Shown here piece after piece: positions 1 through 15,577 of a stretch of DNA of 64,000 nucleotides. The translations under genes and the position numbers were made by a program. The DNA is from Clostridia bacterium (GTDB lineage Bacteria; Bacillota; Clostridia; Oscillospirales; CAG-382), in NCBI GenBank assembly GCA_017620655.1, contig JAGAUT010000079.1, positions 3,635 through 67,634 of the forward strand, written 5' to 3'. The notes beneath the pieces are model-generated. The model was not told the DNA's origin. It searched no databases and saw nothing but the letters and a program-made list of their open reading frames with translations. The stretch's first letter is position 1; each line of letters opens with the position of its first letter.

Positions 1-1286
1 CTTGTACGCTTTGTCTGTGCCGACCAATTTGAAGAATCGTTTCCGAACGAATCACTGAAAAATCCATAGTCCTTATGATCAACATAAAGATCTTCTTCAT
101 TGAAGTCCTCATTGGGCAGTACAGGTACGGTTACCTTGGCACAAAACAGCTTTTCGGCATCAGAATCCGAAAGCTCCTTGGGAACGTCCCGTTTGATTTT
201 CTCAATCTGTCCGTCTACAAGCTCTATTGAGTTATTAAGCTTATTTACATATGCCGAAACGATGGAATTAAGTGATTTTTCGTTATTTTCACTTTCAAGG
301 CAATACAGCTTTCTGGGCTGAATAGCTCCGCCGGGAACCTCATTAAGTGAAAACAGAAGGAGATTGTACAAAAAGCGTATACGGTCGTATCTGTAATTCT
401 GATGTGTATTTGGAAGAATATCGGATGCTATAAATCTCATTTTGTCGAAATACATATTTCTTCCGACAAAATCGGAATATTCCTGTCCGATATGGGTTTC
501 CCAGTATACACGGTCATCGAAGAATCCAGTTTCGGTGGTTCTTTCCGCAAAGCAGAATACTTCTGCGGGAAGAGCTATGCCCATCGAGCTTTTTTTACTT
601 GTAAGACCGTCGCCCGGAAGCATCTGTTCAAGACATTCTGCTCTGAGACTGCTCTTGAGCTTATCCTGCTCAAGGTGATACAAGCGGTCAAGCTCCAAAA
701 GATATTTTTCGAAATTCATGCGATCAAGAACTTTATCGAAAAAGTCAATTGCCTCATGTTTTTCTGCAGGATTGTTGCTCTGCAAACCGTCCGGAGCAAA
801 GCAAAGGCATGTCACAAGTCTCTGAAAAGGATAGCTGAGTGCATCTCTGAAGATTTCAGTATTATCCCTGAGGCGAGCGTTTATACGCTCGCCGCAGTCG
901 TTTTTCCACTTTTCAAAAGATTCCTGAGACAAAACTTCAAAATCGGTTTCTTCGGACGACACATCATCTCTGATATCTGTCTCATCAAGGGGATTTACCA
1001 GCTTATTTTTTTCTGCACACTCAAGAATTCTGTCGTAGCCGATGGCATCGAAAGGATTCTGTAAGAGCGAAAGGCTGTCATCCTTAAGAATTACTGCACG
1101 CCATGTTGCATGTCTTCCGACCTTTTTTACAAGAGAAGGAACACATTCGTATAAGTTTTTTCCCTCGGGATTCCATTCACAAAACGCAAACTCTTTATTT
1201 AATCTGTCAAGAAACGGCTTGAAATACAGTTTATTCTGTTCAATCGCGTCAAAATGCTTTTTTTCAGCTATTATGACAGTGTACAT
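1..1286 (-). CDS. Large uncharacterised protein, 4th gene of the vWA/tubulin-like operon (3' end beyond window; not in ORF track)
   Basis: ATG at 1286 with GGAGG RBS 8 nt upstream (1295-1299). Reads MYTVIIAEKKHFDAIEQNKLYFKPFLDRLNKEFAFCEWNPEG..., and my manual translation found no stop before the window edge. Starts 34 bp after the stop of the tubulin-like gene. Confidence 0.85.
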   Translation of the reverse strand, partial: MYTVIIAEKKHFDAIEQNKLYFKPFLDRLNKEFAFCEWNPEGKNLYECVPSLVKKVGRHATWRAVILKDDSLSLLQNPFDAIGYDRILECAEKNKLVNPLDETDIRDDVSSEETDFEVLSQESFEKWKNDCGERINARLRDNTEIFRDALSYPFQRLVTCLCFAPDGLQSNNPAEKHEAIDFFDKVLDRMNFEKYLLELDRLYHLEQDKLKSSLRAECLEQMLPGDGLTSKKSSMGIALPAEVFCFAERTTETGFFDDRVYWETHIGQEYSDFVGRNMYFDKMRFIASDILPNTHQNYRYDRIRFLYNLLLFSLNEVPGGAIQPRKLYCLESENNEKSLNSIVSAYVNKLNNSIELVDGQIEKIKRDVPKELSDSDAEKLFCAKVTVPVLPNEDFNEEDLYVDHKDYGFFSDSFGNDSSNWSAQTKRT

Positions 1287-1320
1287 AAAGCATACCTCCG
1301 TTTTATTTCTGATAGATTAA

Positions 1321-4300
1321 TTATCTTGAACGCTTTGCGATATGGTCGAGAAGTGTCTCGTAATCTTCGGGTTCGGGTGCAGAACGAACTTCTTCCTGAA
1401 TCTTTCTTCTGATAACATCAAGAACTTCGTTATCTTCAATGCGCTCAGGAACATTGATTTCAGGATGTTCAACATAAAGGTGGTAGTTATTCTGGAGCAA
1501 GTCAAACTCGTTTACGAGTCTGTCGCAAAGAACAAACTTTACGTCCTCTTCCTTTTCCCATGTTTCATATTCTTCTCTGAATACGCTGATTACAGCATCA
1601 ACCATAGCATTGAGTTCGGAAATGTATCTGCTGGAATTGGGGAGAGAATAATAATAGATAAGCGGAATCGCAAAGAGGCTGGTTGTGTTTTCTGTAAATC
1701 TACCTTCAAAGTCGGGATTGTTCTTCTTTTCCAATGCATTCTTCTGAATTTCTTCCGCGAGCTTTGAAAGTTCCTTTGCAGACAGAGGAGCAGCTTTTCT
1801 CTTGCCATCATAGAATGTAAACATGTCAAAGTTAGCCATATCCTTGAAGAATTCGGTTTCTTCATAGTTACAGTTCTTCATGATACTCATTGCGCGCTTA
1901 CGCTGCTTAACTACTTCGTTGATATCCTCAACTACCTTTGCATTTACATAGAGAGCATCGAGGATTTCATAGAACTCATCACAAAGAGTACCGTTTGAAA
2001 CAACGAGAGACTCAAAGCGGTCGATGGAGTTCTTATAGTTGTATACAAGCTTACCGCCTGCCTTGAGGGAGAGAGGATTGTGCTGGATAGCATCGTGAAC
2101 GATACCATAGATAAACGCCTTATGAATATCAAGAATAATGTTCTGCTGGTATTCGTCATCAATTTCAGGCATAACCTTAATGCTGTCCCAACGCTTATCG
2201 ATATGTGTCGACATAGCGGCATTCTTTGTGGAATCGGGACCTATGCTCTTGGAATAGCTATGGTAAGCCTTATGGTATGTACCGGATTCCTTCTTACCTG
2301 TTTCTGTTGTGTAAGGAGCCGCAAACTTCTTGAGCTTATCGGGAGTTACATTATAAAGAGCGTTGAAGAAACGGATTTCATACTTGGATACAGATTCGCA
2401 GGGATCACCCTTTTCAAGGAGAACCTTAACATTGAACTGACGGTTATCTGTAAGGCTTGTGTTATAAGCACAACGGTTGATTTCTCTGGGTTCTACGTTG
2501 AGCATTCTCTGGATGGAGGGAGCTGCAATTCTTGAACCCATGGCAATCTTTGTCTTGAGGTAGGATTCAGCATCACTCTGCTTGAAAATGAATTCTGTGC
2601 CGTTTGCACGAGCCTTCAAACCTTCAATAAGCTTATATTCAAGAACAATAGAGTTGATAACATCGACATTGATTTCTTCGCACTTTTCGCAGATTTCATC
2701 CTTAAAGTAACCCATAAGAATGTCGTCAAAGATATCCTTATGACGGTTTTCGATGGAAAGATCGTCGCCTGCGATGGCTCTTTCCATGTTGAATACTGCA
2801 TTCTTCTTAACCTGATCGAAGATAGCGCCGTTGATTTCGGAACTGAGAAGTGTGGATTCCTGAGAAATCTTGCTGAGAGATGTACGGCTGAGTTCAGCAA
2901 GCACATCACCGTCAGAGCAGATATTCATAACGGAGTCGCCCTTCTTATACTTGAGTTCGTTTGCGATATCGTCCTTCACGCGGCTGAGTCTCTTAACCTT
3001 TTCTTCAAAAGAACCGAAGAAGCTTTCATATTCTTCTGCATATGCCTTGATATAGCTGTATGCCTTTTCGTAAGCTGCATGCTTAGCTTCTTCGTTACAG
3101 AATGCCTTTGCCTTTCTGAAGTAATTGGGAAGAGCTTCATTTGCTGTTTCGAAAAGACTGTTATATCCCTTCATCTTATCAACAAGAGAGGGATTTTCCT
3201 TTTCAAGTTCTCTGAGTCCTTCAAGACCTGTAACAGAGTTCTTTACAAACTTGAAGGAGTATTCAGCGTTTTCTGTAGCTTCGAGAGCCTTAGCGGCATC
3301 AAGATGATCGCCCTGCTTGAGTCTTTCTTCAAACTCGCTCTTGAGCTTGTAGATTATGTAACGGGCAGCACAAGGATGTGAAACGTCACCGATGCTGTTC
3401 TTGAGAAGCTTTTCAATGCTGTAATCCTCATCAATTATAGTTGTAGGTCTTTCATTGGTGAATACGCCTTCGATAAAGCGTCTTGCAATGTCGGCAACCT
3501 TATAGGAACCGTCCTTTGCCTTTTCCTTAACCTTGTTTCTGTAAGCGATAAGGCTGTCAATATTGTTGCTGAGAGAATTTTCGGGGTTAGTATAATCAAT
3601 TGTAGAGCAGAGGCTTGATGCGGCATTGAGAACGTTGAATATTGTGGGATCTTCACTTACAACAGCTTCAATCTGAGCATCAAGGTTAGCCATATACATT
3701 TCTACACGTTCATCAATGTTTTCAAGGAAAACGCCAACCATATCCTTGGAGAAGCTGTCGCCGCCGGATTTAGCCGAGCTGTCAAGATGTTCAATGTAGA
3801 ATTCGCCGAGCTTCTTAGAGGATTCAAGAGACTGGCCGCGCTTCTTCTGTTCCTTCATGTAAAGCTTATGAGCCTTATCGTATCTTGTCCACTTGGAGGA
3901 CTCGCCTTCGCCGCCGATACTGTCTGCAGCAAGGTCGCATGCAACATAGTCAACAATTCTTTCGTAAGGATAACGAACGATACCTGCACCGATACCGCCG
4001 AATCTGTTACGTCCGCGAGACTTTGCAAGTTCCTTGATGATATTATCTTCTGTGGAAGCCGCCTTTCTCTGCATAGGACCGATATTCTGTTCATATAGAG
4101 CGATGGAAGCCTGTTCCTTATACTGCTCATAGCTTGTGAGAGTACTGTCTTCAGCATCCTGTCCGTCCATAAGGAAACAGAAGTCGATAGGAAGTGTAGA
4201 GAGAGACTTGAGCTTATCGGAGCCTGCTATCGGCACGTCAACATGAAGGTCACGGTACTGCCAGAGGTCGGGATCAAGGTCAACAAAGCCCGAACCCTTC

Positions 4301-4989
4301 ATCATAAACGCATTGAGTTCCTTGATGGTAGCATAGCCGTTACGAGCCTGGCTGTCACGTTCTGTCTGGGAGTCAATAACACTGTCGAGTGTTTCGGGAA
4401 GGAGAAGGAGCGCTCTTGTAAGAAGGGCTGCATTGGGGTACTTTTCCTTAACGTAGTTTCTGATAAACATGGAGATGGGAAGGATCATACCGGAACCTGT
4501 ACCGCCGGAAGACGAGCTTGCAATGATACAACGCATTGACTGCTTGAGTTCCTTACCTGTCTTTCTGAAGAGGCTGTCGATAGCATCATAGAGAGGACGG
4601 ATTCTGCCTGTCTTGATTGTTGCATCAACTGCGAGACGGGAAATTGCACGAACCTGACCTGCACCTTCGGACATTGTCTTATCGTACATTACTGCACTCT
4701 TGGGGAACCAGCGCTTACGTGCATCTTCATCGTTGTCAAGGAATGCACCGACTGTCTGGGTTGTGGATGTCTGAATGATGTGTACAAATGGGAGTTCGTC
4801 CTTAATTCTCTTAAGGTCGTTAACGTCAGTATCCATGCAGAGGAAGCTGATGTTTTCTCTTTCAGCAGGATGACATCTCTTTGCGATTCTCTTTACAATG
4901 TCACAACCTGCACCGCCGATACCGAGGAAAAGGTACGCTGCATTGACTTCATTGGGCTTAAGGTCTTCGTTAATTCTTTTTGTTTCCAT
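1321..4989 (-). CDS. Divergent FtsZ/tubulin-like GTPase (Tubulin_2 / FtsZl-type) with long helical C-terminal region
   Basis: N-terminal FLGIGGAG, MDTD, EGAGQVR and SSSGGTGSG tubulin signature; about 850 aa of helical/coiled-coil-like C-terminus; AGGAGA RBS. Confidence 0.88.
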   Translation of the reverse strand: METKRINEDLKPNEVNAAYLFLGIGGAGCDIVKRIAKRCHPAERENISFLCMDTDVNDLKRIKDELPFVHIIQTSTTQTVGAFLDNDEDARKRWFPKSAVMYDKTMSEGAGQVRAISRLAVDATIKTGRIRPLYDAIDSLFRKTGKELKQSMRCIIASSSSGGTGSGMILPISMFIRNYVKEKYPNAALLTRALLLLPETLDSVIDSQTERDSQARNGYATIKELNAFMMKGSGFVDLDPDLWQYRDLHVDVPIAGSDKLKSLSTLPIDFCFLMDGQDAEDSTLTSYEQYKEQASIALYEQNIGPMQRKAASTEDNIIKELAKSRGRNRFGGIGAGIVRYPYERIVDYVACDLAADSIGGEGESSKWTRYDKAHKLYMKEQKKRGQSLESSKKLGEFYIEHLDSSAKSGGDSFSKDMVGVFLENIDERVEMYMANLDAQIEAVVSEDPTIFNVLNAASSLCSTIDYTNPENSLSNNIDSLIAYRNKVKEKAKDGSYKVADIARRFIEGVFTNERPTTIIDEDYSIEKLLKNSIGDVSHPCAARYIIYKLKSEFEERLKQGDHLDAAKALEATENAEYSFKFVKNSVTGLEGLRELEKENPSLVDKMKGYNSLFETANEALPNYFRKAKAFCNEEAKHAAYEKAYSYIKAYAEEYESFFGSFEEKVKRLSRVKDDIANELKYKKGDSVMNICSDGDVLAELSRTSLSKISQESTLLSSEINGAIFDQVKKNAVFNMERAIAGDDLSIENRHKDIFDDILMGYFKDEICEKCEEINVDVINSIVLEYKLIEGLKARANGTEFIFKQSDAESYLKTKIAMGSRIAAPSIQRMLNVEPREINRCAYNTSLTDNRQFNVKVLLEKGDPCESVSKYEIRFFNALYNVTPDKLKKFAAPYTTETGKKESGTYHKAYHSYSKSIGPDSTKNAAMSTHIDKRWDSIKVMPEIDDEYQQNIILDIHKAFIYGIVHDAIQHNPLSLKAGGKLVYNYKNSIDRFESLVVSNGTLCDEFYEILDALYVNAKVVEDINEVVKQRKRAMSIMKNCNYEETEFFKDMANFDMFTFYDGKRKAAPLSAKELSKLAEEIQKNALEKKNNPDFEGRFTENTTSLFAIPLIYYYSLPNSSRYISELNAMVDAVISVFREEYETWEKEEDVKFVLCDRLVNEFDLLQNNYHLYVEHPEINVPERIEDNEVLDVIRRKIQEEVRSAPEPEDYETLLDHIAKRSR

Positions 4990-5023
4990 AACTGTTCTCC
5001 TTAATTTATAGTAAATTTATTTT

Positions 5024-7588
5024 TTATTCAAACTTTATGTCATAGGACACAGTAAATTTAGTTGCTCTGCCGTTTATATCTTTTGTTCCGGAATAATTCA
5101 TTGTTCCCTGCGGGAAATTGAAATCCTTTACGCTTTCTGATGCACGGATAAGGGATCCGTCTTTCTTGCTGCGGAAGAATGACTCATTGCCAATATCCAG
5201 TTTAGCTACAGTGTTAGGATTAGGCTTTACACTTCCATTTACCACCAATGCTTTTCTCTTCTTTGAGGGAAGATATCTGTAGCTATCCTTTGCAGGAATG
5301 AGTGTTGCACTCCAGCTTGCATCGGAAAGATCTCCCGTTCCCTTGATTTTAATATCGCGTCTTTTTCCTTTTGAGGGATATCTCACGGTTGCCTTCAATG
5401 TATCAACTGTTTTGATACCAAGTTTTACCGAAACATTTACAAGTCTTATCTTCTTAGGCAAAACGGGAGTTCTGAGCCAGAGCCAGATAATAAGTGCTAT
5501 CAAAAGGATTATGAGAATCCAGAACAGCCACTTCAGCCACAAAGCAACAAGGCTGAGGGTTACTGTAAGAGCCCCTTCTGTTTCTGTCACTCTGCCGATG
5601 TGGTCGGTATATTCTGCCTTTACTCTGATGGGATAATTGCCCTCAGCTATACCCTTTGTGGGTAAAAGCTTGATAAGGTATGCAGAATTCTTCTTATCGG
5701 GTGTAACTTTATGTTCAATTCCGCCGCAATCAACCGAAAGCTTTATTGCATCAAAGTCCTGTTCGCTGAGCTTTTTGCCCTTAAAGCTGAATGATGCAAC
5801 TATCGGGCGGCTTTCTTCAATATCTTTGATTGTGATGTAGCTGTCGGGTGCATACAAATCCATATGCACGGGAACAAAATCATCTCTGATGATATACGAA
5901 AGTGTCTGCTGTACCTGAGCGTTGTCGCTGCCTTCCTTCTGATAAGAAGCATAAATGGTTACGGTACATTTGCCGCACTGCGTATCCTGAGGATTTGATG
6001 TATCCTTATAGCTTAACAAAAGATTGTAGTGATCGTCTGCAAACTCAGGTGTAATTTTTGCATAGGTTACATCTTTATCCCAATCAAGAACAACCTTTTC
6101 AAGCTCTGCTCCGGTGAGCTTACTTCCTTCATAGAAAATCTCGGCAATAAAGGGACTTCCCTTGGGGAGATCCTGCAACGAATAATAATCGTCGCCGCCT
6201 GAAATTTTAAGCTTCATGTTCCCCGCGGGCATCGGAAGAACCTTGATACCTCCAAAAGGCCAGCCAAAGTCTGTGGAGCGTTTTGTAATTGTATATCCGC
6301 TAAGATATGTAACGGTAAGATTGGCATCGAAAGTATCACCCATTTTCAAATATACATTTTCATATCCGCTATACCCATCGCAAGCAATTGGCGTCTCTTC
6401 GCCTTTGACAGAATAGGTGCCACGATATTTCGGGGTGCCAAGAAGTTCAGAAGAAATAATTACTTGTTCTTTATTATCCCACATTCCAAAACTTATCGAG
6501 TAGTCGCCCTCATAAAGAGCATCGGGATTTACATCATTTCCTTCGGAATCCGTAAATACAAAATCAAGGTCTACATCCGGCTCGTAATACACCTCAAAGG
6601 TGGGTTTTTCGCCGGAATACTGGATTTTATATTTTCCAGATTCACAACCGCCAAATGTGAGAATCTCCCCTTGAAGCGAAGTGTCGGATTCAACAACAAC
6701 CTTTCCGTTAAGCCATTTTCCCGCACCTTTTGTCGAATATTTAGTGGTAGTTTTGCTGAGTGCCTTCAAAGGCTTGCCGTTTTCGCCAACAACTTTTAAA
6801 TCGGAAATATTCTTACCCTGTGCAAACAGGATAAGCTTGCTCATTGAAATGTCAAATTCAAAGCTATCTCCCGAAATATACTTTTTGGGTAAAGTATCTC
6901 TGCCGAAAATACGGTTACACATTTCCGTTAGAGCCGAGAGAACATCCTCACTGTTCACAACATGTTTTTTTTCGAAATAATCCGATTCAGGGGTATCAGG
7001 AATTACGGCTTTCTCACCGATTCCCAGATACATGATTGTCATATCTGGACCGGCGTTGTTCTGGATGATTTCATCGAGAAGAGGCTTTGCCGCGTTTCCT
7101 TTATAATCTGTACTACCGCGTTTAAACGAATCGCCATCGGTAAGTACAACAAGATATTTATTGCCACTATTTACTTCACTAAGACCATTGATGGCGCTGT
7201 CAATACTTTCAATAGGCGTTCCCTGTGCATTCGGTGTATAAATCTCACGTATATCGGACGCCTGTTTAGCTCCGGTTATTTTCATGGGATTATCCATGGT
7301 ATACTTTTCGCCGTCAACCTCAATTTCCCACATGGGATAAATCATAAGCGTATCGCCTTCGTTAAGCATTGAAGCGAAAACTTCCATAGCGTAGGTTGCA
7401 CGGCACCACGCCTTGAGCGGTTGCCCATTGTTCTCGCTCGTCATATACATCGAACCGGAATTGTCAAAAACAATGGCTATCGTTCTTTTATCCTCAACCT
7501 TTTTGGCAGCCTCTACCCCGGTTGTTCCGATGTTTATGCATATGAAGAACAAAAACACCGCAAGCAGTGCACTTGTAAATTTCTTCAC
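5024..7588 (-). CDS. Single-pass membrane protein with extracellular vWA (MIDAS) domain, beta-rich stalk and basic cytoplasmic tail
   Basis: Signal peptide; DNSGSM (DxSxS), GTP and LTDG MIDAS motifs; TM helix WLFWILIILLIALIIWLW; Lys/Arg-rich C-terminal domain. Confidence 0.85.
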   Translation of the reverse strand: MKKFTSALLAVFLFFICINIGTTGVEAAKKVEDKRTIAIVFDNSGSMYMTSENNGQPLKAWCRATYAMEVFASMLNEGDTLMIYPMWEIEVDGEKYTMDNPMKITGAKQASDIREIYTPNAQGTPIESIDSAINGLSEVNSGNKYLVVLTDGDSFKRGSTDYKGNAAKPLLDEIIQNNAGPDMTIMYLGIGEKAVIPDTPESDYFEKKHVVNSEDVLSALTEMCNRIFGRDTLPKKYISGDSFEFDISMSKLILFAQGKNISDLKVVGENGKPLKALSKTTTKYSTKGAGKWLNGKVVVESDTSLQGEILTFGGCESGKYKIQYSGEKPTFEVYYEPDVDLDFVFTDSEGNDVNPDALYEGDYSISFGMWDNKEQVIISSELLGTPKYRGTYSVKGEETPIACDGYSGYENVYLKMGDTFDANLTVTYLSGYTITKRSTDFGWPFGGIKVLPMPAGNMKLKISGGDDYYSLQDLPKGSPFIAEIFYEGSKLTGAELEKVVLDWDKDVTYAKITPEFADDHYNLLLSYKDTSNPQDTQCGKCTVTIYASYQKEGSDNAQVQQTLSYIIRDDFVPVHMDLYAPDSYITIKDIEESRPIVASFSFKGKKLSEQDFDAIKLSVDCGGIEHKVTPDKKNSAYLIKLLPTKGIAEGNYPIRVKAEYTDHIGRVTETEGALTVTLSLVALWLKWLFWILIILLIALIIWLWLRTPVLPKKIRLVNVSVKLGIKTVDTLKATVRYPSKGKRRDIKIKGTGDLSDASWSATLIPAKDSYRYLPSKKRKALVVNGSVKPNPNTVAKLDIGNESFFRSKKDGSLIRASESVKDFNFPQGTMNYSGTKDINGRATKFTVSYDIKFE

Positions 7589-7621
7589 TGATTCTTCACT
7601 CCTTTTTGTTGCTGTGCATAT

Positions 7622-7945
7622 TTACTTTTGCTTGACGAACTCCACACCGTCTATATAAATTGAATTACCGTCTTTTTCAAAGCTCTTTACCATATCATAG
7701 CTGAGTCCGAAAAGGCTGTATGTGATTGTTATTTCATCCTTTTCAATCATGTATTCCCCGGTAACATCAACACCAAATGCGGAAACCTTTACCTTGTTAT
7801 CTTCCATAAAAGTAAATGTCTGCTTGATGAAACCGTCCGTCTGTTCATATGTGCCGTTAAGTTTTACAGCACAGGACACAAGGGTAAATACCGCAGCAAC
7901 AGCCAAAACAACTGCTGCAACTCTTTTTAAAAGTCTTTTTTTCAT
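7622..7945 (-). CDS. Small lipoprotein (beta-rich), first gene of the operon
   Basis: MKKRLLKR + hydrophobic stretch + LVSC lipobox; GGAGG RBS favours the ATG at 7945. Confidence 0.8.
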   Translation of the reverse strand: MKKRLLKRVAAVVLAVAAVFTLVSCAVKLNGTYEQTDGFIKQTFTFMEDNKVKVSAFGVDVTGEYMIEKDEITITYSLFGLSYDMVKSFEKDGNSIYIDGVEFVKQK

Positions 7946-8030
7946 AAAAACAACCTCCAAAGTTATTCTTTCTGTATCGCCTAATATTTTGTTGAAAAAT
8001 TATACAAATTTATATTTAGGGATAACAAAT

Positions 8031-8091
8031 ATTTTATCACCAAAATCGCAAAAAATCAACAATTTCGACATATTTCGGCATTTTTTCTACA
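8031..8091 (-). promoter_or_regulatory. Sigma-A promoter (TTGATT-17-TGnTAAAAT) of the vWA/tubulin operon with upstream tandem Spo0A-box-like motifs
   Basis: -10 at 8031-8036 and -35 at 8054-8059; on the minus strand TGTCGAA (8064-8070), TGCCGAA (8074-8080) and TGTAGAA (8085-8091). Confidence 0.55.
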
Positions 8092-8312: not shown

Positions 8313-9569
8313 ATGAAGCGATTATATTTGACAGGCGGAGCAATTATTCTCACTCTCATTTTAGTACTTATTCTGGTATTCAGTTGCACAAGAAACAAAG
8401 AACCCGACGCAATAATAATTCTGCCCGGCATTATGGGAAGCGATTTATTCCTTGCTGAGCAAGCCGTATACGACGGCGATGTTTATCCCGCTGATACAAA
8501 GCTATGGATTGACATAGATTCGGTAAGGAAGATTTTCAAAACAGCCGAACACATCCGAATGCTTGCACCGGAGAACAATTTCAACATCCGTCCGGATGCC
8601 CCTGTTATCAACGACCTTAAAACACTCGGAAACTACGGTGCAATGAATACATACGGTGTTTTATACAAACAGATATACTCGCAGTTCCACGACACATGTG
8701 ACGTGATACTTTACAACTATGACTGGCGCGAAGATCCCTATGAAACGGCTCGAAAGCTTGACCGATTTATATCCGAGAGAGATTATCAAAGCGTTTCCTT
8801 TGTGGCACACAGCATGGGCGGTCTTGTAGCGTCCCATTATTTTGCCATGGGCAAAACACAAAGGAGCAAAGTAAACACATTTCTTTCTCTTGGTACCCCC
8901 TATCTTGGCTCCGAGCAAGCATCAAATGCCATGCTGACAGGCAACATCAGCGGTTTTATCGCAAATGTATTTATTTCAGATGAAATAAGAAACATATGCC
9001 CAAAGCTCGATTCAATGTATGCACTGTTACCCTACGAACATCTATGGCGCAGTTCACTTGCCGTTTACGATTTAACGGGATCTGACCGTTCATTATCATT
9101 TGAAGATGAAGAACATTTACTAGAAGAGTTTGCACAAGGATACAGTCAGAAACAGCATGACACAGCAAAAAGAAACAAAGAGCTGTTATTTACCGAAAAA
9201 GGCAAGCATATAAGCGAGCTTGTTAACTCTTATTATCTTGCGGGTGACGGCCAGGAAACCGTCAGTGTAATTAATTTACCCAAGATAGCAGAGCTTTCAA
9301 ACACACTAAGCACGACTTCCAAAACATCATCGGGAGACGGCACGGTATCCTTATACAGTGCCACTGTTGCAGGAACGCTTCCCAAAAAAAGAACATTCAT
9401 CAAATCAGAGGATAAAAAAAGCAAATCCTCCCACGATTCACTCGCCGACGGAAGTGATATATCTACCATGGATTTTATCATCGAAGTTCTGAAGGGCAAT
9501 GCAGACAAGATGTCGGATTCCGATTTAGAAAGAAAATACAACATTCGCAGAGCATCAAACGATAAATGA
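8313..9569 (+). CDS. LCAT/PGAP1-like alpha/beta hydrolase (lipase/phospholipase/acyltransferase), membrane-anchored or lipoprotein
   Basis: IILPGIMGS, YDWR, AHSMGG nucleophile elbow, GTPYLGS, GDGTV, late His; N-terminal hydrophobic segment ending VFSC. Confidence 0.85.
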   Translation: MKRLYLTGGAIILTLILVLILVFSCTRNKEPDAIIILPGIMGSDLFLAEQAVYDGDVYPADTKLWIDIDSVRKIFKTAEHIRMLAPENNFNIRPDAPVINDLKTLGNYGAMNTYGVLYKQIYSQFHDTCDVILYNYDWREDPYETARKLDRFISERDYQSVSFVAHSMGGLVASHYFAMGKTQRSKVNTFLSLGTPYLGSEQASNAMLTGNISGFIANVFISDEIRNICPKLDSMYALLPYEHLWRSSLAVYDLTGSDRSLSFEDEEHLLEEFAQGYSQKQHDTAKRNKELLFTEKGKHISELVNSYYLAGDGQETVSVINLPKIAELSNTLSTTSKTSSGDGTVSLYSATVAGTLPKKRTFIKSEDKKSKSSHDSLADGSDISTMDFIIEVLKGNADKMSDSDLERKYNIRRASNDK

Positions 9570-10314: not shown

Positions 10315-11490
10315 TCACTTCTTTTCTTTCAAGCCCAGTTGTTCCAATAGCAACTCCATATTATCAAAGTCTGCAAAATTGGGCATTACGGGTAATACCA
10401 GTTCATTCTTGGCAATTTTCAGATATCCCGGTTTAAAAATTCTAAGCCATCTGGATATCTCGCAAAATGGCGTCATCCACTTGTGCTTTCTTATGATGGG
10501 GTACTGTATTTTGAGCTTATCATATGATAAAAACACCGTATTTAAGATACGTTTTATTTTACTATCATTTTTTGCATAAGCCACAGAATGCCGATTACTT
10601 GCCGTACCATAAGTGCCGCCTCTCAAAACAAAGTTTTGAAGTTTTATAATAGTTTCATTACTCTTTCCGTCAGAAAACCAAAAATCACTTAGTTCCCTGC
10701 TGCAATCAGCAAACTTGAGCAATCCGCATTTATTAAGCAAAATATCTCTTTTTTCTTTATCATGATCAACCTTGTTATCAAGAATCCATAAATCAAGAAA
10801 AGGTCTAATTCCGCAGCCACCGCTTTCAAAATGTTTTGCCATATGATATATGTGATACAAATAAAAGAATTCATCGCTCAAAACACAATAGTAAGCTTTT
10901 CCTTCTTTTGGACAAGCATACTCCCAAACCCTATCTATCAGCTTTTCTGCCGAGCTTTCATAATATATTTCCGATAATTTATAATGAAGCTCTATATGGG
11001 TTCCGTTTTGAGAAAAAAGCGAAACATCATGAGTTCCGGATTCATCTTTTTTATAGCCATAAACATTTCCCAGAAGCATGGATGCCCTTTCCAAATCTTC
11101 TTCATGCACAAGAATATCGATATCACAGCTTGTTCTCATCCACGGCTCTGGGTAATAATCACGTATTACAGATCCTTTGAGGGGAACAAACTGAATATGC
11201 TCGGACTCAAAAGCATCACACACCTGGCAAAAAATCTGATTGGTTGCCTCATAACGAACAGCTGCAATTGGATGGCGTTTTTTGAGTTTTTTTGTAAGTT
11301 CAGTTTGCTCAAGCGGTATTCTATTTTTTTCAATTGCATAAGATACTAAGTGGGAAATATCGTGGTGTTTTGAAAACTTATACAATTTGTCAGCACAGTT
11401 GAAAACTGCCTCTCTCGTTTCCTCATCAATCACAGTTTCAAATACAGCATTTCTGATGAGCGAAAACAGGATTTCTATAGTAGGTTTCAA
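10315..11490 (-). CDS. Nucleotidyltransferase family protein (NTP_transf_5), last gene of cluster B
   Basis: PLKGSV...RTSCDIDILV, IELHY, H-x3-H...GIRPFLD motifs; TTG start with AGGAGA RBS. Confidence 0.85.
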   Translation of the reverse strand: MKPTIEILFSLIRNAVFETVIDEETREAVFNCADKLYKFSKHHDISHLVSYAIEKNRIPLEQTELTKKLKKRHPIAAVRYEATNQIFCQVCDAFESEHIQFVPLKGSVIRDYYPEPWMRTSCDIDILVHEEDLERASMLLGNVYGYKKDESGTHDVSLFSQNGTHIELHYKLSEIYYESSAEKLIDRVWEYACPKEGKAYYCVLSDEFFYLYHIYHMAKHFESGGCGIRPFLDLWILDNKVDHDKEKRDILLNKCGLLKFADCSRELSDFWFSDGKSNETIIKLQNFVLRGGTYGTASNRHSVAYAKNDSKIKRILNTVFLSYDKLKIQYPIIRKHKWMTPFCEISRWLRIFKPGYLKIAKNELVLPVMPNFADFDNMELLLEQLGLKEKK

Positions 11491-11506
11491 AGTATTTCTC
11501 CTATAT

Positions 11507-12964
11507 TTATATGCTCTTTTTTTTATAAATAACAGTCAATAGGTATTGGAAAGATGAGTTTTTTGTCAACACAGATAGCAAAATATACACTGCCACACCG
11601 ACCACTACCTGAGACACTATGAGTACATAATCATTTTCGATCACAAGCGATACGCTCCACACAGCAACAGACATTAAAAGGGTTGACAAAGAATTAGGAA
11701 TCAAATCCATAAGCTGTTCTTTATAAGAATAGTTTATAAGTTTTGTATTGGGATACATATTTATCAACGAAGATAAAACTGCAATCAGTAGACCGCCATA
11801 TGCAACGTATAGCGCATCGTCAAAAAAAACAATTGAAAGAATAAGAACAATTATTCCTAAAGCTTTCTTCACTATCTCAAGTTTCAAGAAGACATCGCTT
11901 CGTCCCATAGCATTTATTACCTGTGCATTTGCAGTCTGCAACGGAGTCAACATATATATGAGCGCATTAATTACCAAAAATGGCACACAAGGAAGCCATA
12001 CATCGGTTATGAGTATTGAAACAAGAGGTTTAGACACTATACAAAGACCGGCAAGCAAAGGAAATACAACAAACGAACTAACCCTTACAGACAAGCTGAG
12101 TTGTTGCTTTAACCTTTGAGGATCATTCTGTGCTTTAGAATAAACCGGAAGCATAACGTTATCAATAGTTGTATTTATATTAGATATAATAAGGTGCGGG
12201 AACTGCTTGCCTTTATCATAATAAGCAAGAGTAGCACTATTGTACTTCTTGCCAATCACAAGGCTTCTCAATTCATTATATCCGGTACTTATTATGTTAG
12301 CAATCAAAATCTTATAGCCATACTTTAGCAACGGTTTGACTTGCTTTACAGAAGACACTCCGTTAGGAACCCACCTCGTAGCGACTTCCATCGCAATTAA
12401 TGCTACTGCCTGATTCGCAATGTGCTGATACACTAAAGCCCAAACACCATATCCACAGTAAGCTAATATAATACCAACTATTCCAGACACGACACTGGCA
12501 ACTATATTACAAAGGCACAGCACATTAAACTTCATTTCTTTTGCAAGCTTTGAGTTGAGCACCGTTGTGCCTGCACCAAAAAACAACGAAAGCGACATAA
12601 CCTGCAAAGTCTGTTCTACTATTGGCATATCGAAAAACTCAGCAATAAACGGAGCACTTACGTACAATGTGACGTATAGTACCGTTGCCAGCGCAATACT
12701 GACATACAACACAGAACTATAATCGTTATTGTTCACATTCTTTTTCTGTATGAGTGCTGTGCCAAGACCGCTCTGTACAATAACCTGAGAAAGCGTTATG
12801 AAAATCAGCAATACCGACAAAACTCCATACTCTTCAGGCAATAGCATTCGAGCTAAAATCATCGACACAACAAACGATGAAATTTGCGCCCCGCATCGTT
12901 CTACGAATTTCCATATAAGTGCGACAACCACGCTGTTTTTACTTATCGAATCATTTTTTGACAC
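11507..12964 (-). CDS. wzx: Polysaccharide flippase (WzxC family)
   Basis: About 12-14 TM; LARMLLPEEYG, ALIQKK, VIGKKY motifs. Confidence 0.9.
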   Translation of the reverse strand: MSKNDSISKNSVVVALIWKFVERCGAQISSFVVSMILARMLLPEEYGVLSVLLIFITLSQVIVQSGLGTALIQKKNVNNNDYSSVLYVSIALATVLYVTLYVSAPFIAEFFDMPIVEQTLQVMSLSLFFGAGTTVLNSKLAKEMKFNVLCLCNIVASVVSGIVGIILAYCGYGVWALVYQHIANQAVALIAMEVATRWVPNGVSSVKQVKPLLKYGYKILIANIISTGYNELRSLVIGKKYNSATLAYYDKGKQFPHLIISNINTTIDNVMLPVYSKAQNDPQRLKQQLSLSVRVSSFVVFPLLAGLCIVSKPLVSILITDVWLPCVPFLVINALIYMLTPLQTANAQVINAMGRSDVFLKLEIVKKALGIIVLILSIVFFDDALYVAYGGLLIAVLSSLINMYPNTKLINYSYKEQLMDLIPNSLSTLLMSVAVWSVSLVIENDYVLIVSQVVVGVAVYILLSVLTKNSSFQYLLTVIYKKKSI

Positions 12965-12974
12965 AATTATCTCC

Positions 12975-13952
12975 TTAGGTGTTTGAATAATACTTCTCCA
13001 TAACAGTTATCAGATTATTCAGGTGTTCAGAAAATTTACAACTGACCCTTTTATATACTTCTGTTTTTTTTATATCACAAAACTGCTTATAATAGTTTTT
13101 GTAGAGCTCAGAAGATATTATACTTTCCTCCGCTTCAACAATGACAGGGCTTCTGAATATTCCCAAATGGATACCGTGATGAGGTCTATAAGCTGCCTTG
13201 GAAGCATCTGTTTCAATATTGTAAGGCAAGCCTGTTGATAATTGACAATCGTTAAAACCCGCATCCATAACAAGATCCCGAAGCATAGCTTCATTGTTAA
13301 AAGAACAGAGATTATATCTATTTGATTTTCCTACTGCAAGAAGATTCAGTTCATCATAAAAATCGTCAATGACCGACTTCACTTTTGCATAATACTCTTT
13401 TGTAAGAACAAAGTGAAGCCCTGAAAGCTTAATAACAGGCTCATTCTTGCCAAAATAATACTTTAATGACTGCAAAGGACCAAACTTTATGACATTTCTT
13501 GCAATAATTCTTGGATTAAATCTTCTTTTTCCTGCCGCTCTGCTGATATTGCTGTACGGAGCTCCCACAATTTGACAATGAAGCTTATGCTGTTCAAACA
13601 AGGGCTTGTCTTCTCGGCAAATCAAGAGATCTATATCACCAATATAAATAGCTTCATAATCAAGAAAAGCCTCATCATAAAACAACCATCTTTGACAGCG
13701 CTGAATCTGCTGGATCGATATTGCCTTTTTTGTAAATTTGGTATGCTCTGCATAATTCTCTACAACATATATTCCGCCGTAATACTCGGAAAGAATATTG
13801 ACAGCTTCTCTTGTATCTTTATTGAGCGTTTTATCAATATACAATCTAATATGGTAATCGGGATAACTTTCTTTCAAAGAAATTATATACAAAGGTATGA
13901 ATCCCTGATACTTTTCTCCGTGTATATAATTTACAACACAAAGTTTATTCAT
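12975..13952 (-). CDS. Hypothetical, possible GT-A-fold transferase
   Basis: YIGDIDL DxD motif after a beta strand; lies inside the polysaccharide cluster; GGAGA RBS favours ATG 13952. Confidence 0.55.
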   Translation of the reverse strand: MNKLCVVNYIHGEKYQGFIPLYIISLKESYPDYHIRLYIDKTLNKDTREAVNILSEYYGGIYVVENYAEHTKFTKKAISIQQIQRCQRWLFYDEAFLDYEAIYIGDIDLLICREDKPLFEQHKLHCQIVGAPYSNISRAAGKRRFNPRIIARNVIKFGPLQSLKYYFGKNEPVIKLSGLHFVLTKEYYAKVKSVIDDFYDELNLLAVGKSNRYNLCSFNNEAMLRDLVMDAGFNDCQLSTGLPYNIETDASKAAYRPHHGIHLGIFRSPVIVEAEESIISSELYKNYYKQFCDIKKTEVYKRVSCKFSEHLNNLITVMEKYYSNT

Positions 13953-14373
13953 TGCCACCGTCTCCAATTTCCTTAGCAGGGGCACTGACAACAGTACTTC
14001 CGGGTTTTACGCTCTTTACAACCAGAGCTCCCCCCCCGATTTTTGAATTCTCACCTATTGTTATATCTCCCAGAATTGTAGCATTAGCACCAACAAAAAC
14101 CCCATCCTTCAAGACAGGCCCCTCAGAGGAATTACGATTTCCGATAGTTACATTTTGATATATTGTACAGTTTTCACCAATTTTACTGCTACTGTTAATT
14201 ACAACACCGAGAGCATTGTGGGGAAAATTTACTGTAGGAGCTATTTCACAAGTATAGGGTATAACACACGAATACATAAATCGCATATATCGATATATCA
14301 TTACTGAAACAAACTGCATTTTATGCAAATAAAACCACCTTGCACGTCTCTGCAATTTTGTTATTTTATTCAT
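13945..14373 (-). CDS. CysE-like hexapeptide-repeat O-acetyltransferase
   Basis: FPHNALGVVI, IYQNVTIG, VGANATILG LbH repeats. Confidence 0.85.
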   Translation of the reverse strand: MNKITKLQRRARWFYLHKMQFVSVMIYRYMRFMYSCVIPYTCEIAPTVNFPHNALGVVINSSSKIGENCTIYQNVTIGNRNSSEGPVLKDGVFVGANATILGDITIGENSKIGGGALVVKSVKPGSTVVSAPAKEIGDGGNE

Positions 14374-14377
14374 TATT

Positions 14378-15577
14378 TCACTTTCCTTCATTTGCTTCTT
14401 TTTTTATCAAACTCGCAATAGCAAAACATAATGCCAACAATACATATGTAAACTTATTTAGAAGGGTGGTTGTCGTTATATCGTTAACAAACGTCATTAA
14501 AGTTATAAATACAAGCAATGGTGCCATATTATTCTTGTAAAAATGCTTTACACCTACAATCAAAAAGTAGACGTATGCGCCATACCAGAACGACAACCCG
14601 ATTATGCCAAAACTCACTGCAATTTGGATATAATTGTTATGGGAAGGGTGAAAACTACCGAACGTCTGTTCAAACAACAAACCATATTGCTCTATGCCGT
14701 ATCCCAAAATCGGTCTTTCTTTGATTTTTTCTAAGCCAAAATCTATATATAACTGTCGTTTTATAGTTGATGTATCTTTTCCTTGCAACGCATCATCAAA
14801 TCTATTCAAAACAAGCTCCATTACCCCTAAACGGTATAAAATAAATGCTAACAACGCAATAATTGCCAAAGCAAAAGCTGCTCGCGTAATCAACTTTTTT
14901 TTATCTTTCAGTGCAATCAACAAGAAAGTCGCTACTAAAAGCAAAAGTAAGCACTTCTTTGACCCTGACATCAACCCCATCAATACAGGCAGTGGCAAAA
15001 AGACAATTTGCCACCTCTTTTTGTTGTATATAAATTGATAAAGAGCAAAAGCAAAAACTATGGCACTGTAATATCCAAATGCATTTTCCTGATTTACGTT
15101 GCCTCCGATTCTCACCTCATCAGCAAGCATACTCAAAACCCCATCGATACCGATAGTTGCAAATGTATAAAAATACATCACGTAACCCGAAAAAATAATG
15201 GAATTGATAGTAAAACTTACTTTATACGGTGTATCAATTATAACATTCGCAAATATACACAAAATGATGAGTTGCACTAGTGTTATAATCTTTCCTGTTC
15301 CGTATGTAACATCCATAGACCATGACAAAGAAGCAAATGCCAATAAGAAAAGACCAAACAGCCACAAAACAGTACCGTTGACATAAAATGCACGCTTTTC
15401 CGTCAAAATATAAAGAAAACTGCAGGCACACATCACAAAAAACGCTGCTTGCGAGATTATATTCAACTCTTCATTTGAACTAAAAACAAAAACAGTTGCA
15501 ATGTATATAGCAAGTGAAAATATTGCCATATTCCCCGTTGTCCAAGACCATTTTTGTTTTCTCTGAATATTATCCAT
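14378..15577 (-). CDS. wzy: O-antigen polymerase/ligase family membrane protein
   Basis: About 10-11 TM; SGSKK, RP-ILGYG, SHNNYIQ motifs. Confidence 0.8.
   Translation of the reverse strand: MDNIQRKQKWSWTTGNMAIFSLAIYIATVFVFSSNEELNIISQAAFFVMCACSFLYILTEKRAFYVNGTVLWLFGLFLLAFASLSWSMDVTYGTGKIITLVQLIILCIFANVIIDTPYKVSFTINSIIFSGYVMYFYTFATIGIDGVLSMLADEVRIGGNVNQENAFGYYSAIVFAFALYQFIYNKKRWQIVFLPLPVLMGLMSGSKKCLLLLLVATFLLIALKDKKKLITRAAFALAIIALLAFILYRLGVMELVLNRFDDALQGKDTSTIKRQLYIDFGLEKIKERPILGYGIEQYGLLFEQTFGSFHPSHNNYIQIAVSFGIIGLSFWYGAYVYFLIVGVKHFYKNNMAPLLVFITLMTFVNDITTTTLLNKFTYVLLALCFAIASLIKKEANEGK

Follow-up and report, generated by a model that had tools for sequence, protein, structure and literature searches.

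A conserved six-gene cassette of gut Clostridia encoding an exported vWA protein, a divergent tubulin-like GTPase, and a predicted zinc peptidase: a candidate envelope surveillance module

What would a bacterium use an operon for that combines a small lipoprotein, an exported vWA protein, and a giant tubulin-like GTPase, and where does such an operon end? The question is raised by positions 1-7960 of a 64,000-nucleotide (nt) stretch of DNA from a Clostridia bacterium (G000:C17:3635-67634; below, the window means this whole stretch, and G000 is its own genome). An earlier note on this DNA had proposed an outside sensor coupled through the membrane to a GTPase and a downstream effector. We found that the operon comprises six genes (g1 to g6), two of which, g5 and g6, lie beyond the window, and we have high confidence that they form a self-contained cassette of ~14.6 kb. 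Gene content, topology, folds, motifs, synteny, gene fusion, and patchy distribution were observed and form the basis of the account below. The chances are even that, in this cassette, a vWA receptor at the cell surface is coupled to a membrane-anchored zinc protease and a divergent tubulin-like GTPase; that it is an envelope surveillance module with outside-in signaling and a proteolytic output is possible, with the chances somewhat against it.

The open reading frame (ORF) list of the window gave minus-strand frames at 7622-7960, 5024-7588, 1321-4989, and 3-1286, with intergenic spacings of 33, 34, and 34 nt, and the four co-directional, tightly packed genes of the earlier note were thereby recovered as it had described them. 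The fourth frame was open at the window edge, and upstream sequence of contig C17 together with contig C66 gave the remainder of the operon, which reads as follows (lengths in amino acids [aa]; MIDAS, metal ion-dependent adhesion site).

7622-7945, minus strand: g1, lipoprotein with signal peptide and lipobox, 107 aa if read from the ATG at 7945
5024-7588, minus strand: g2, exported MIDAS-vWA protein of 854 aa, assigned by motifs and hydropathy
1321-4989, minus strand: g3, FtsZl1/Tubulin_2 GTPase of 1222 aa, assigned by its PF13809 match
1-1286, minus strand: g4, 727 aa, first 428 codons here and the remainder at G000:C17:2737-3634
C17:3-2744 plus the end of contig C66, outside the window: g5, ~1255 aa
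C66:16438-17625, outside the window: g6, predicted zinc-ribbon HExxH peptidase, found by a search of the same genome
7999-8059, minus strand: promoter-like sites TTGATT-17-TAAAAT with TG and TTGTTA-18-TATAAT, consensus scan matches only

The large ORF of unknown function at the window edge thus proved to be a real gene and not the end of the operon: the entire gene, g4, encodes a 727-aa two-helix membrane protein and is followed by g5 and g6. Genes g4 and g5 overlap by 8 nt, and g5 leaves contig C17 after 914 codons. The end of C66 carries a second copy of the final 46 codons of the C17 piece, and this ~46-codon overlap indicates that the two contigs abut and that g5 is whole (~1255 aa); a database search returned a 1255-aa protein on record as belonging to the window's own genome. 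The assembly break inside g5 (contig ends L002 1-140 and L067 12586-12726) falls just before a low-complexity acidic/lysine-rich tail. The consensus scan returned 23 promoter-like sites in 8.6 kb against 17.7 expected, and the sites at 7999-8059 therefore count as weak evidence.

Synteny in other genomes, whose absence the earlier note had named among the results that would refute its reading, was strong. When contigs representing one genome per species were searched with an alignment of g4 relatives, 56 loci were retrieved, all from Clostridia/Bacillota metagenome-assembled genomes, and the same gene order recurred in these 56 loci. By tblastn, 40 of the 56 had the complete, colinear set g2-g3-g4-g5-g6 on one strand; in 15 further loci, shorter than the full flank because of contig ends, the genes present were contiguous and colinear; and in L032, g5 was missed by tblastn and ORF clustering placed two g5/g6-family ORFs there. 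The g5 family had 682 representatives at 50% identity and 894 clusters at 90%, mostly from gut Clostridia. Named hits in the g4 and g5 sequence searches were all labeled "hypothetical protein."

Among close relatives, the distribution was patchy. Gene g3 was found in 3 of 41 related genomes, G000 included, and was not found in 13 same-genus genomes (completeness, 75-98%), and a copy with 92% identity was present in another genus (G016). In G015, of the same family, there was a distant FtsZl1-like relative with 26% identity over residues 18-229; this gene (L005/L008, G015:C75:11868-12512) has an open frame of 1199 aa. Beyond g6 in G000 lie an AraC regulator and arabinose genes, and the other flank carries a divergent LCAT-like hydrolase gene followed by polysaccharide-synthesis genes. 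On the arabinose side, the same-genus genome G005 matched G000 colinearly (91.7% identity), after which a different 4.7 kb followed; this is evidence for insertion of the cassette into a variable region. From these comparisons, we judge with high confidence that the cassette is conserved and has moved horizontally among gut Clostridia.

The part of the cassette predicted to face outward is g2. Hydropathy gave an N-terminal signal (residues 1-28) and a single membrane helix (673-712), and the architecture is that of an exported vWA head on a beta-rich stalk, joined by one membrane helix to a basic tail; the cytoplasmic tail, 146 aa long, has 30 K+R versus 13 D+E and an isoelectric point of 10.2. 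The MIDAS pattern DxSxS...T...D is complete, with DNSGS at 42-46 (D42-N-S44-G-S46) plus T124 and D151. Among 24 orthologues, D42, S44, T124, and D151 were invariant, and S46 was at least 90% conserved. Hydropathy, MIDAS residues, and tail charge all bore out the earlier description of an exported MIDAS-vWA protein with one membrane pass and a basic cytoplasmic tail. A Pfam scan of the window's g2 returned no vWA match, among 24 orthologues, 10 matched VWA_2 (best E, 5.2e-4) and 5 matched VWA, and a g2 profile search of solved structures gave no match. Between G000 and G016, the identity was 55% for the g2 head, 67% for the g2 stalk, 73% for the g2 tail, 98% for the g3 tubulin domain, and 96% for the g5 RecA1-like domain. 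Judged by these figures, the extracellular vWA head appears to be the fast-evolving part of the cassette.

The tubulin-like nature of g3, and its assignment to FtsZl1/Tubulin_2, were supported by a match to PF13809 (E, 9.4e-51; 173.6 bits against a cut-off of 27) over residues 20-357, spanning profile positions 1-354 of 356; weak N-terminal matches were obtained to PF00091 (E, 3e-7) and TIGR00065 (E, 1.1e-4). Both GTP-binding loops were intact, T1 as GIGGAG (23-28) and T4 as SGGTGSG (161-167), and G23, G25, G26, G28, and G162-G167 were invariant among 24 orthologues, as were the blocks QTSxTQ, SEGAGQVRxISRLA, DFCFL, LYEQNxGPM, and GRNRFGGIG. The 1222-aa length, the SGGTGSG signature, and the lack of NxDxxD had been reported in the earlier note and stood: the entire sequence has no N.D..[DE] motif. 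An acidic block, E314-D-N-x-I-K-E320, was also invariant among the 24 orthologues and could be a T7 equivalent. Pfam showed no FtsZ_C or tubulin_C domain, and hydropathy showed no membrane helix. In a profile search of solved structures, g3 found nothing better than E 0.035, and in the ESM Atlas, it was represented by Tubulin_2 clusters alone, with no structure.

Hydropathy placed a two-helix membrane hairpin at residues 518-583 of g4. An AlphaFold2 model built from 22 sequences (pLDDT, 79.7; pTM, 0.58) comprised an alpha/beta domain of six strands (1-~415), a set of very long helices (417-659) in which the hairpin lies, and a small beta domain (697-722). When this model was compared with the PDB by Foldseek, no structure reached E 0.001; ClyA-family pore formers and dynamin/GBP stalks ranked highest, at nonsignificant E values of 3e-3 to 0.2, and the modeled likeness to ClyA-type hairpins or dynamin stalks is a weak lead. 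There is also a weak hint of a tubulin-like fold in g4. An hhalign comparison of the g4 and g3 N-terminal domains gave a probability of 0.1%, and g4 has no glycine-rich loops, so a second, nucleotide-less tubulin fold in g4 is only a lead. For the N-terminal domain, the ESM Atlas gave no usable feature match, its own model being poor (pLDDT, 0.42) and its structural rows uninformative. A SLATT-type reading of the hairpin was rejected: a Pfam scan to E 1 showed no SLATT family.

For g5, an AlphaFold2 model from 32 sequences showed a helical membrane anchor followed by an alpha/beta core. Hydropathy gave four hydrophobic blocks, and we read the anchor as approximately six helices. Structure comparison showed that the fold resembles superfamily 2 (SF2) helicases, with the DUF1998 helicase MrfA on top, and the RecA1-like fold of SF2 helicases was recognized in it. 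Conservation was examined in the 150 best of the 682 family representatives, with motif positions assigned from the AlphaFold2 model: the P-loop position reads N-P-F-Y-x-D (P in 134/150, F in 140/150, and D in 138/150), and at the Walker B position, a single Glu is left, within hhhh-E-P-S. An active SF2 helicase was rejected for g5, which has neither Walker A (GxGK[ST]) nor a DExx Walker B; by sequence and model, the core appears to be a helicase-derived scaffold that lost its ATP-binding loop. A regular-expression search for Walker A found none in g1-g6, leaving g3 as the only nucleotide switch of the cassette. The g5 tail is polar (64 D+E and 41 K+R in 234 residues), and a profile search of solved structures with g5 gave matches to this low-complexity tail only.

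The product of the last gene, g6, has an acidic disordered N terminus, a zinc ribbon built on four cysteines, and an HExxH motif followed 26 residues on by a Glu, and C175, C178, C197, C200, H291, E292, H295, and E321 were invariant among 24 orthologues. DUF6782 matched 24/24 orthologues at E ~7e-5, below the 27-bit cut-off, and DUF6055, BSP, M61, and WLM gave weaker subthreshold matches; a profile search of solved structures found no relative and one marginal ribosomal zinc-ribbon match (E, 0.05). We predict that g6 is a zinc-ribbon zincin (gluzincin-type) peptidase tethered by an acidic disordered linker. Furthermore, g5 and g6 form one reading frame in L060, L063, and L065 and in 102 of the 150 best family representatives, which implies that they act as one unit; in the clade nearest the window, they are usually split and overlap in different frames. 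The earlier note had cast the fourth ORF as a downstream effector. That part of its proposal probably does not hold for g4, and the effector role better suits the helicase-like g5 and the zincin g6. In a divergent clade (L063, 16260-18065, and L065), the fused g5-g6 is 1952-1970 aa long and has an extra C-terminal transglutaminase-like domain (for L063, E 4.6e-20 to PDB 9crn_A), an addition that would give the L063/L065 fusion two peptidase-type modules.

The lipoprotein of the earlier note is present in this operon and carries both an LVSC lipobox and a signal peptide. Its likely start is the ATG at 7945, which a GGAGG precedes by 8 nt, rather than the alternative TTG at 7960. As a core part of the sensor, it did not stand: g1 relatives were found in 13 of the 41 loci with room upstream (tblastn), g1 is missing in the cassette's closest relative, and the lipoprotein is an optional, accessory addition to the cassette. 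Its DUF5640 match was weak (E, 0.0066, below cut-off), and in L049, a DUF5640 protein passing the cut-off sits after g6 instead.

The two nearest ORFs on each side were scanned in 44 loci (143 ORFs), with families classed by reading. A defense- or mobility-associated family was among them in 18 of the 44 loci, a count that stands without a computed background rate. These families included the following: TIR proteins, with or without a leucine-rich repeat (LRR) or kinase (L012, L017, L030, L046, and L063); integrases/tyrosine recombinases directly upstream (L022, L033, L051, and L059); transposases (L033, L034, and L047); IrrE-like peptidases (L032, L034, L037, and L043); and Endonuclea_NS_2, Fic, HsdM, barnase/barstar, and Macro. 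PADLOC confirmed two neighbors, a SoFic (E, 2.2e-43) and a PD-T4-6-type kinase (~1e-58), and gave one marginal match for g6 itself (PDC-M69B; E, 7e-4).

The closest relative of the cassette (L010/L009, G016:C37) is bordered on one side by a barnase-barstar pair and a MazE-like gene; the other side carries a SoFic-type Fic gene and a type I restriction-modification system that includes a RhuM-like gene. A gene pair encoding a ~600-aa multi-pass membrane protein (weak RyR and TrkA_N matches) and a TIR plus BspA-type LRR protein with a ThsB-like TIR flanked the cassette in divergent clades, upstream in L030 and L046 and downstream in L063 and L064; the RyR/TrkA-like protein occurred without the TIR partner in L020, L029, L060, and L065. 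A Na/Ca exchanger gene lay just after g6 on the same strand in eight loci (L017, L020, L022, L025, L027, L036, L054, and L055), a Castor/Pollux-RCK channel was seen in L022, L032, L060, and L065, and an Ion_trans channel was seen in L056. In total, cation channel or exchanger neighbors, including the RyR/TrkA-like protein (8 loci), were found in 17 distinct loci of 56, genome kinship being uncontrolled in this count. Directly upstream of g2 and co-directional with it in L032, L034, L037, and L043, there was an Xre-type helix-turn-helix (HTH) gene with an IrrE/ImmA-like M78 peptidase gene, a pair that may regulate the cassette as a switch. Downstream, L032, L035, L037, and L043 had an Endonuclea_NS_2 lipoprotein gene with small ORFs next to it.

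Within the window, the gene divergent from the operon (8313-9569, plus strand) encodes an LCAT/DUF676-type alpha/beta hydrolase. This query was not found in the 13 same-genus genomes, which indicates that the variable region reaches past the cassette. The minus-strand genes at 10315-14391 encode an NTP_transf_5 nucleotidyltransferase, a Polysacc_synt_3 flippase-type protein, an unknown 338-aa protein, and a hexapeptide transferase; they are only 68-81% similar to G005 and look like a surface-polysaccharide cluster adjoining the variable region. DNA nearly identical to window 1-7960 was detected in 11 sequencing runs containing at least half of the sampled words, labeled gut metagenome or bovine gut metagenome (one had no organism label), and any part of the region was found in 20 rows from 12 studies, with no RNA data set listed among them.

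How these parts might work together can be proposed as follows, where we infer every protein-protein contact, the ligand, polymerization, and the protease substrate. The metal-dependent vWA head of g2 would stand on its stalk outside the cell, sometimes accompanied by the small lipoprotein. The membrane would be spanned by the g2 helix, the two-helix hairpin of g4, and the approximately six anchor helices of g5, and the cytoplasm would contain the basic g2 tail, g3, the g4 alpha/beta domain, the g5 helicase-derived domain, and the g6 peptidase. A ligand or an envelope disturbance at the fast-evolving vWA head would send a signal across the membrane, the signal would trigger or release GTP-dependent g3 assembly at the membrane on g4 and g5, and this assembly would switch on the peptidase, with cleavage of an invader or host protein. 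The most likely setting would be conflict with phages or other mobile elements, given the patchy spread, the fast-evolving head, and the defense- or mobility-associated neighbors. A more specific version, which we consider improbable, is an integrin-like machine in which the MIDAS receptor would act on a tubulin filament nucleated or capped by g4, and the filament would license the zincin protease for envelope immunity against phages or conjugative DNA. It is equally doubtful that, as this version would have it, g4 is a tubulin-fold protein lacking nucleotide motifs and bearing a pore-like hairpin, and that FtsZl1 is a cytomotive switch and not a cytoskeleton.

A serious rival to the surveillance module is an accessory system for envelope or membrane remodeling that has no role in conflict. 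Its integrin-like vWA would sense the cell wall, neighboring cells, host surfaces, or cation status; reshaping or repair of the membrane would fall to a tubulin-like filament acting with g4 and g5, and the peptidase would serve in maturation or turnover of parts. Membrane remodeling was predicted by Makarova and Koonin 2010 (PMC2875224, in its available parts), hydropathy makes three of the six proteins integral to the membrane, the g4 hairpin is weakly like dynamin/GBP stalks and ClyA-type hairpins (none significant), cation channels or exchangers adjoin the operon in 17/56 loci, and many flanks are housekeeping. If the function were a core envelope one, sister species should share it, yet the g3 query was found in 0/13 of them (completeness, 75-98%); the patchy distribution, the near-identical copy across genera, the fastest evolution in the surface head, and the TIR, restriction-modification, Fic, integrase, and IrrE-like neighbors in a sizeable minority of loci also speak against remodeling, which we consider rather unlikely. 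Several results nevertheless weigh against a surveillance module acting in conflict. The published predictions favor membrane remodeling and are compatible with these data. PADLOC-DB 2.0.0 gave no match for g1-g5, including full-length g5, at E up to 0.1 or 1; the neighbor count of 18/44 is a raw one; most flanking genes were housekeeping; and the G000 flanks (arabinose catabolism, hydrolase, and polysaccharide synthesis) had no mobility gene. In plasmid, phage, and IMG/VR collections, there were two weak plasmid matches (24-25% identity), one 9.8-kb phage-labeled fragment, and one viral-labeled 16.5-kb IMG/VR contig. In addition, hidden Markov model support for vWA in g2 is weak, the g5 model had a pLDDT of 68.6 and a pTM of 0.40 with its second RecA-like half poorly modeled, and g4 and g5+g6 are equated with proteins B5 and B12 of the operon type catalogued in 2010 by order, size, and annotation.

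Two other explanations are less probable than remodeling. The cassette could serve a mobile element in entry exclusion, membrane DNA handling, or maintenance, with g5 gripping nucleic acid at the inner face, an idea suggested by the SF2-like fold of g5 with MrfA on top, the tyrosine recombinases upstream in L022/L033/L051/L059, the transposases of L033/L034/L047, and the Xre-HTH and IrrE-like pair upstream in L032/L034/L037/L043, as in element immunity switches. It is made quite improbable by the lack of conjugation, replication, or capsid genes in the scanned flanks, the near absence of the cassette from plasmid and phage collections, the lack in g5 of the ATP-binding motifs needed by a DNA motor, and the lack of a mobility gene beside the G000 cassette. 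A phage- or plasmid-borne origin was likewise rejected, the cassette being nearly absent from those collections. The two viral-labeled records, MT836542.1 and L069 (IMGVR_UViG_3300029447_000476), are short, with g3 or g5 relatives at or near the contig end, and may be bacterial fragments binned as viral. A decaying remnant or a misassembly, which the contig end breaking inside g5 might suggest, is scarcely credible: all reading frames are intact, the ~46-codon contig overlap gives the whole ~1255-aa g5 with a 1255-aa own-genome protein on record, catalytic and binding motifs are invariant across 24-32 orthologues, and the same order recurs in 56 loci.

The cassette type is common, mostly in gut Clostridia, and FtsZl1 is the most divergent branch of the tubulin/FtsZ superfamily. 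A single nucleotide switch, a predicted proteolytic output on a helicase-derived scaffold, a fast-evolving vWA head, and an optional lipoprotein narrow the choice of informative point mutants to a small set. Should the conflict reading be true, a tubulin homolog would be at work in envelope-level immunity of a new mechanistic class.

Compared with known systems, the cassette shows partial resemblances and one close one. With FtsZ, tubulin, and TubZ, g3 shares the intact and invariant T1 and T4 GTP-binding signatures, whereas it lacks the NxDxxD T7 loop and FtsZ_C/tubulin_C, has ~850 extra residues, and belongs to an accessory operon. The likeness of g5 to MrfA and other SF2 helicases is structural only; unlike them, g5 is membrane anchored, mostly peptidase fused, and without Walker A. 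Firmicutes tubulin-vWA modules have been described inside DO-GTPase/GAP1-N2 conflict systems (Kaur, Burroughs, Iyer, and Aravind 2020, eLife e52696, PMC7159879). Membership in these systems was rejected because there is no P-loop in g1-g6, as indicated by the lack of Walker A and of any GTPase Pfam/NCBIfam match. In contrast to those systems as portrayed in the accessible parts of that paper, no FNIII-repeat protein was detected here by Pfam scans, there is one clear tubulin gene, and the output would be a zincin peptidase on a helicase-derived scaffold.

The close resemblance is to the vWA-FtsZl1-B5-B12 operon type. FtsZl1 was defined by Makarova and Koonin (Biol Direct 5:33, PMC2875224), who predicted that vWA-FtsZl1 operons encode membrane-remodeling and vesicle-biogenesis machinery, and Santana-Molina et al. 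2023 (PMC9871819) treat Tubulin_2 proteins as a divergent outgroup of unclear history. The available parts of both papers agree with the earlier note that such operons were predicted computationally and are uncharacterized; a literature search with most subscription journals outside its reach found no experimental FtsZl1 study. Additional file 5 of PMC2875224 lists, for "Bacteroides capillosus," vWA 861 - FtsZl1 1183 - B5 658 - B12 1435, and supplement rows with this architecture include BACCAP_04124-04121 and RUMLAC_01529-01526. The operon type is therefore not new, and we assign the locus to it with high confidence. Judged by those rows, order and sizes are the same (vWA, ~730-860 aa; FtsZl1, ~1140-1220 aa; and partner, ~660-730 aa), the order closes with a large membrane-associated zincin with a Zn finger, and the hosts are gut Clostridia. 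The present locus differs in having B12 as two genes, g5 and g6, and an additional lipoprotein gene. A helicase-like core, as seen here for B12, has no mention in the accessible text and supplement of PMC2875224. To the catalogued type, the present locus thus adds the six-gene extent, the B12 split, the ATP-motif-less and apparently helicase-derived B12 core, the optional lipoprotein, the apparently fast-evolving vWA head, the evidence of insertion in a variable region, and the weak hint of a tubulin fold in B5.

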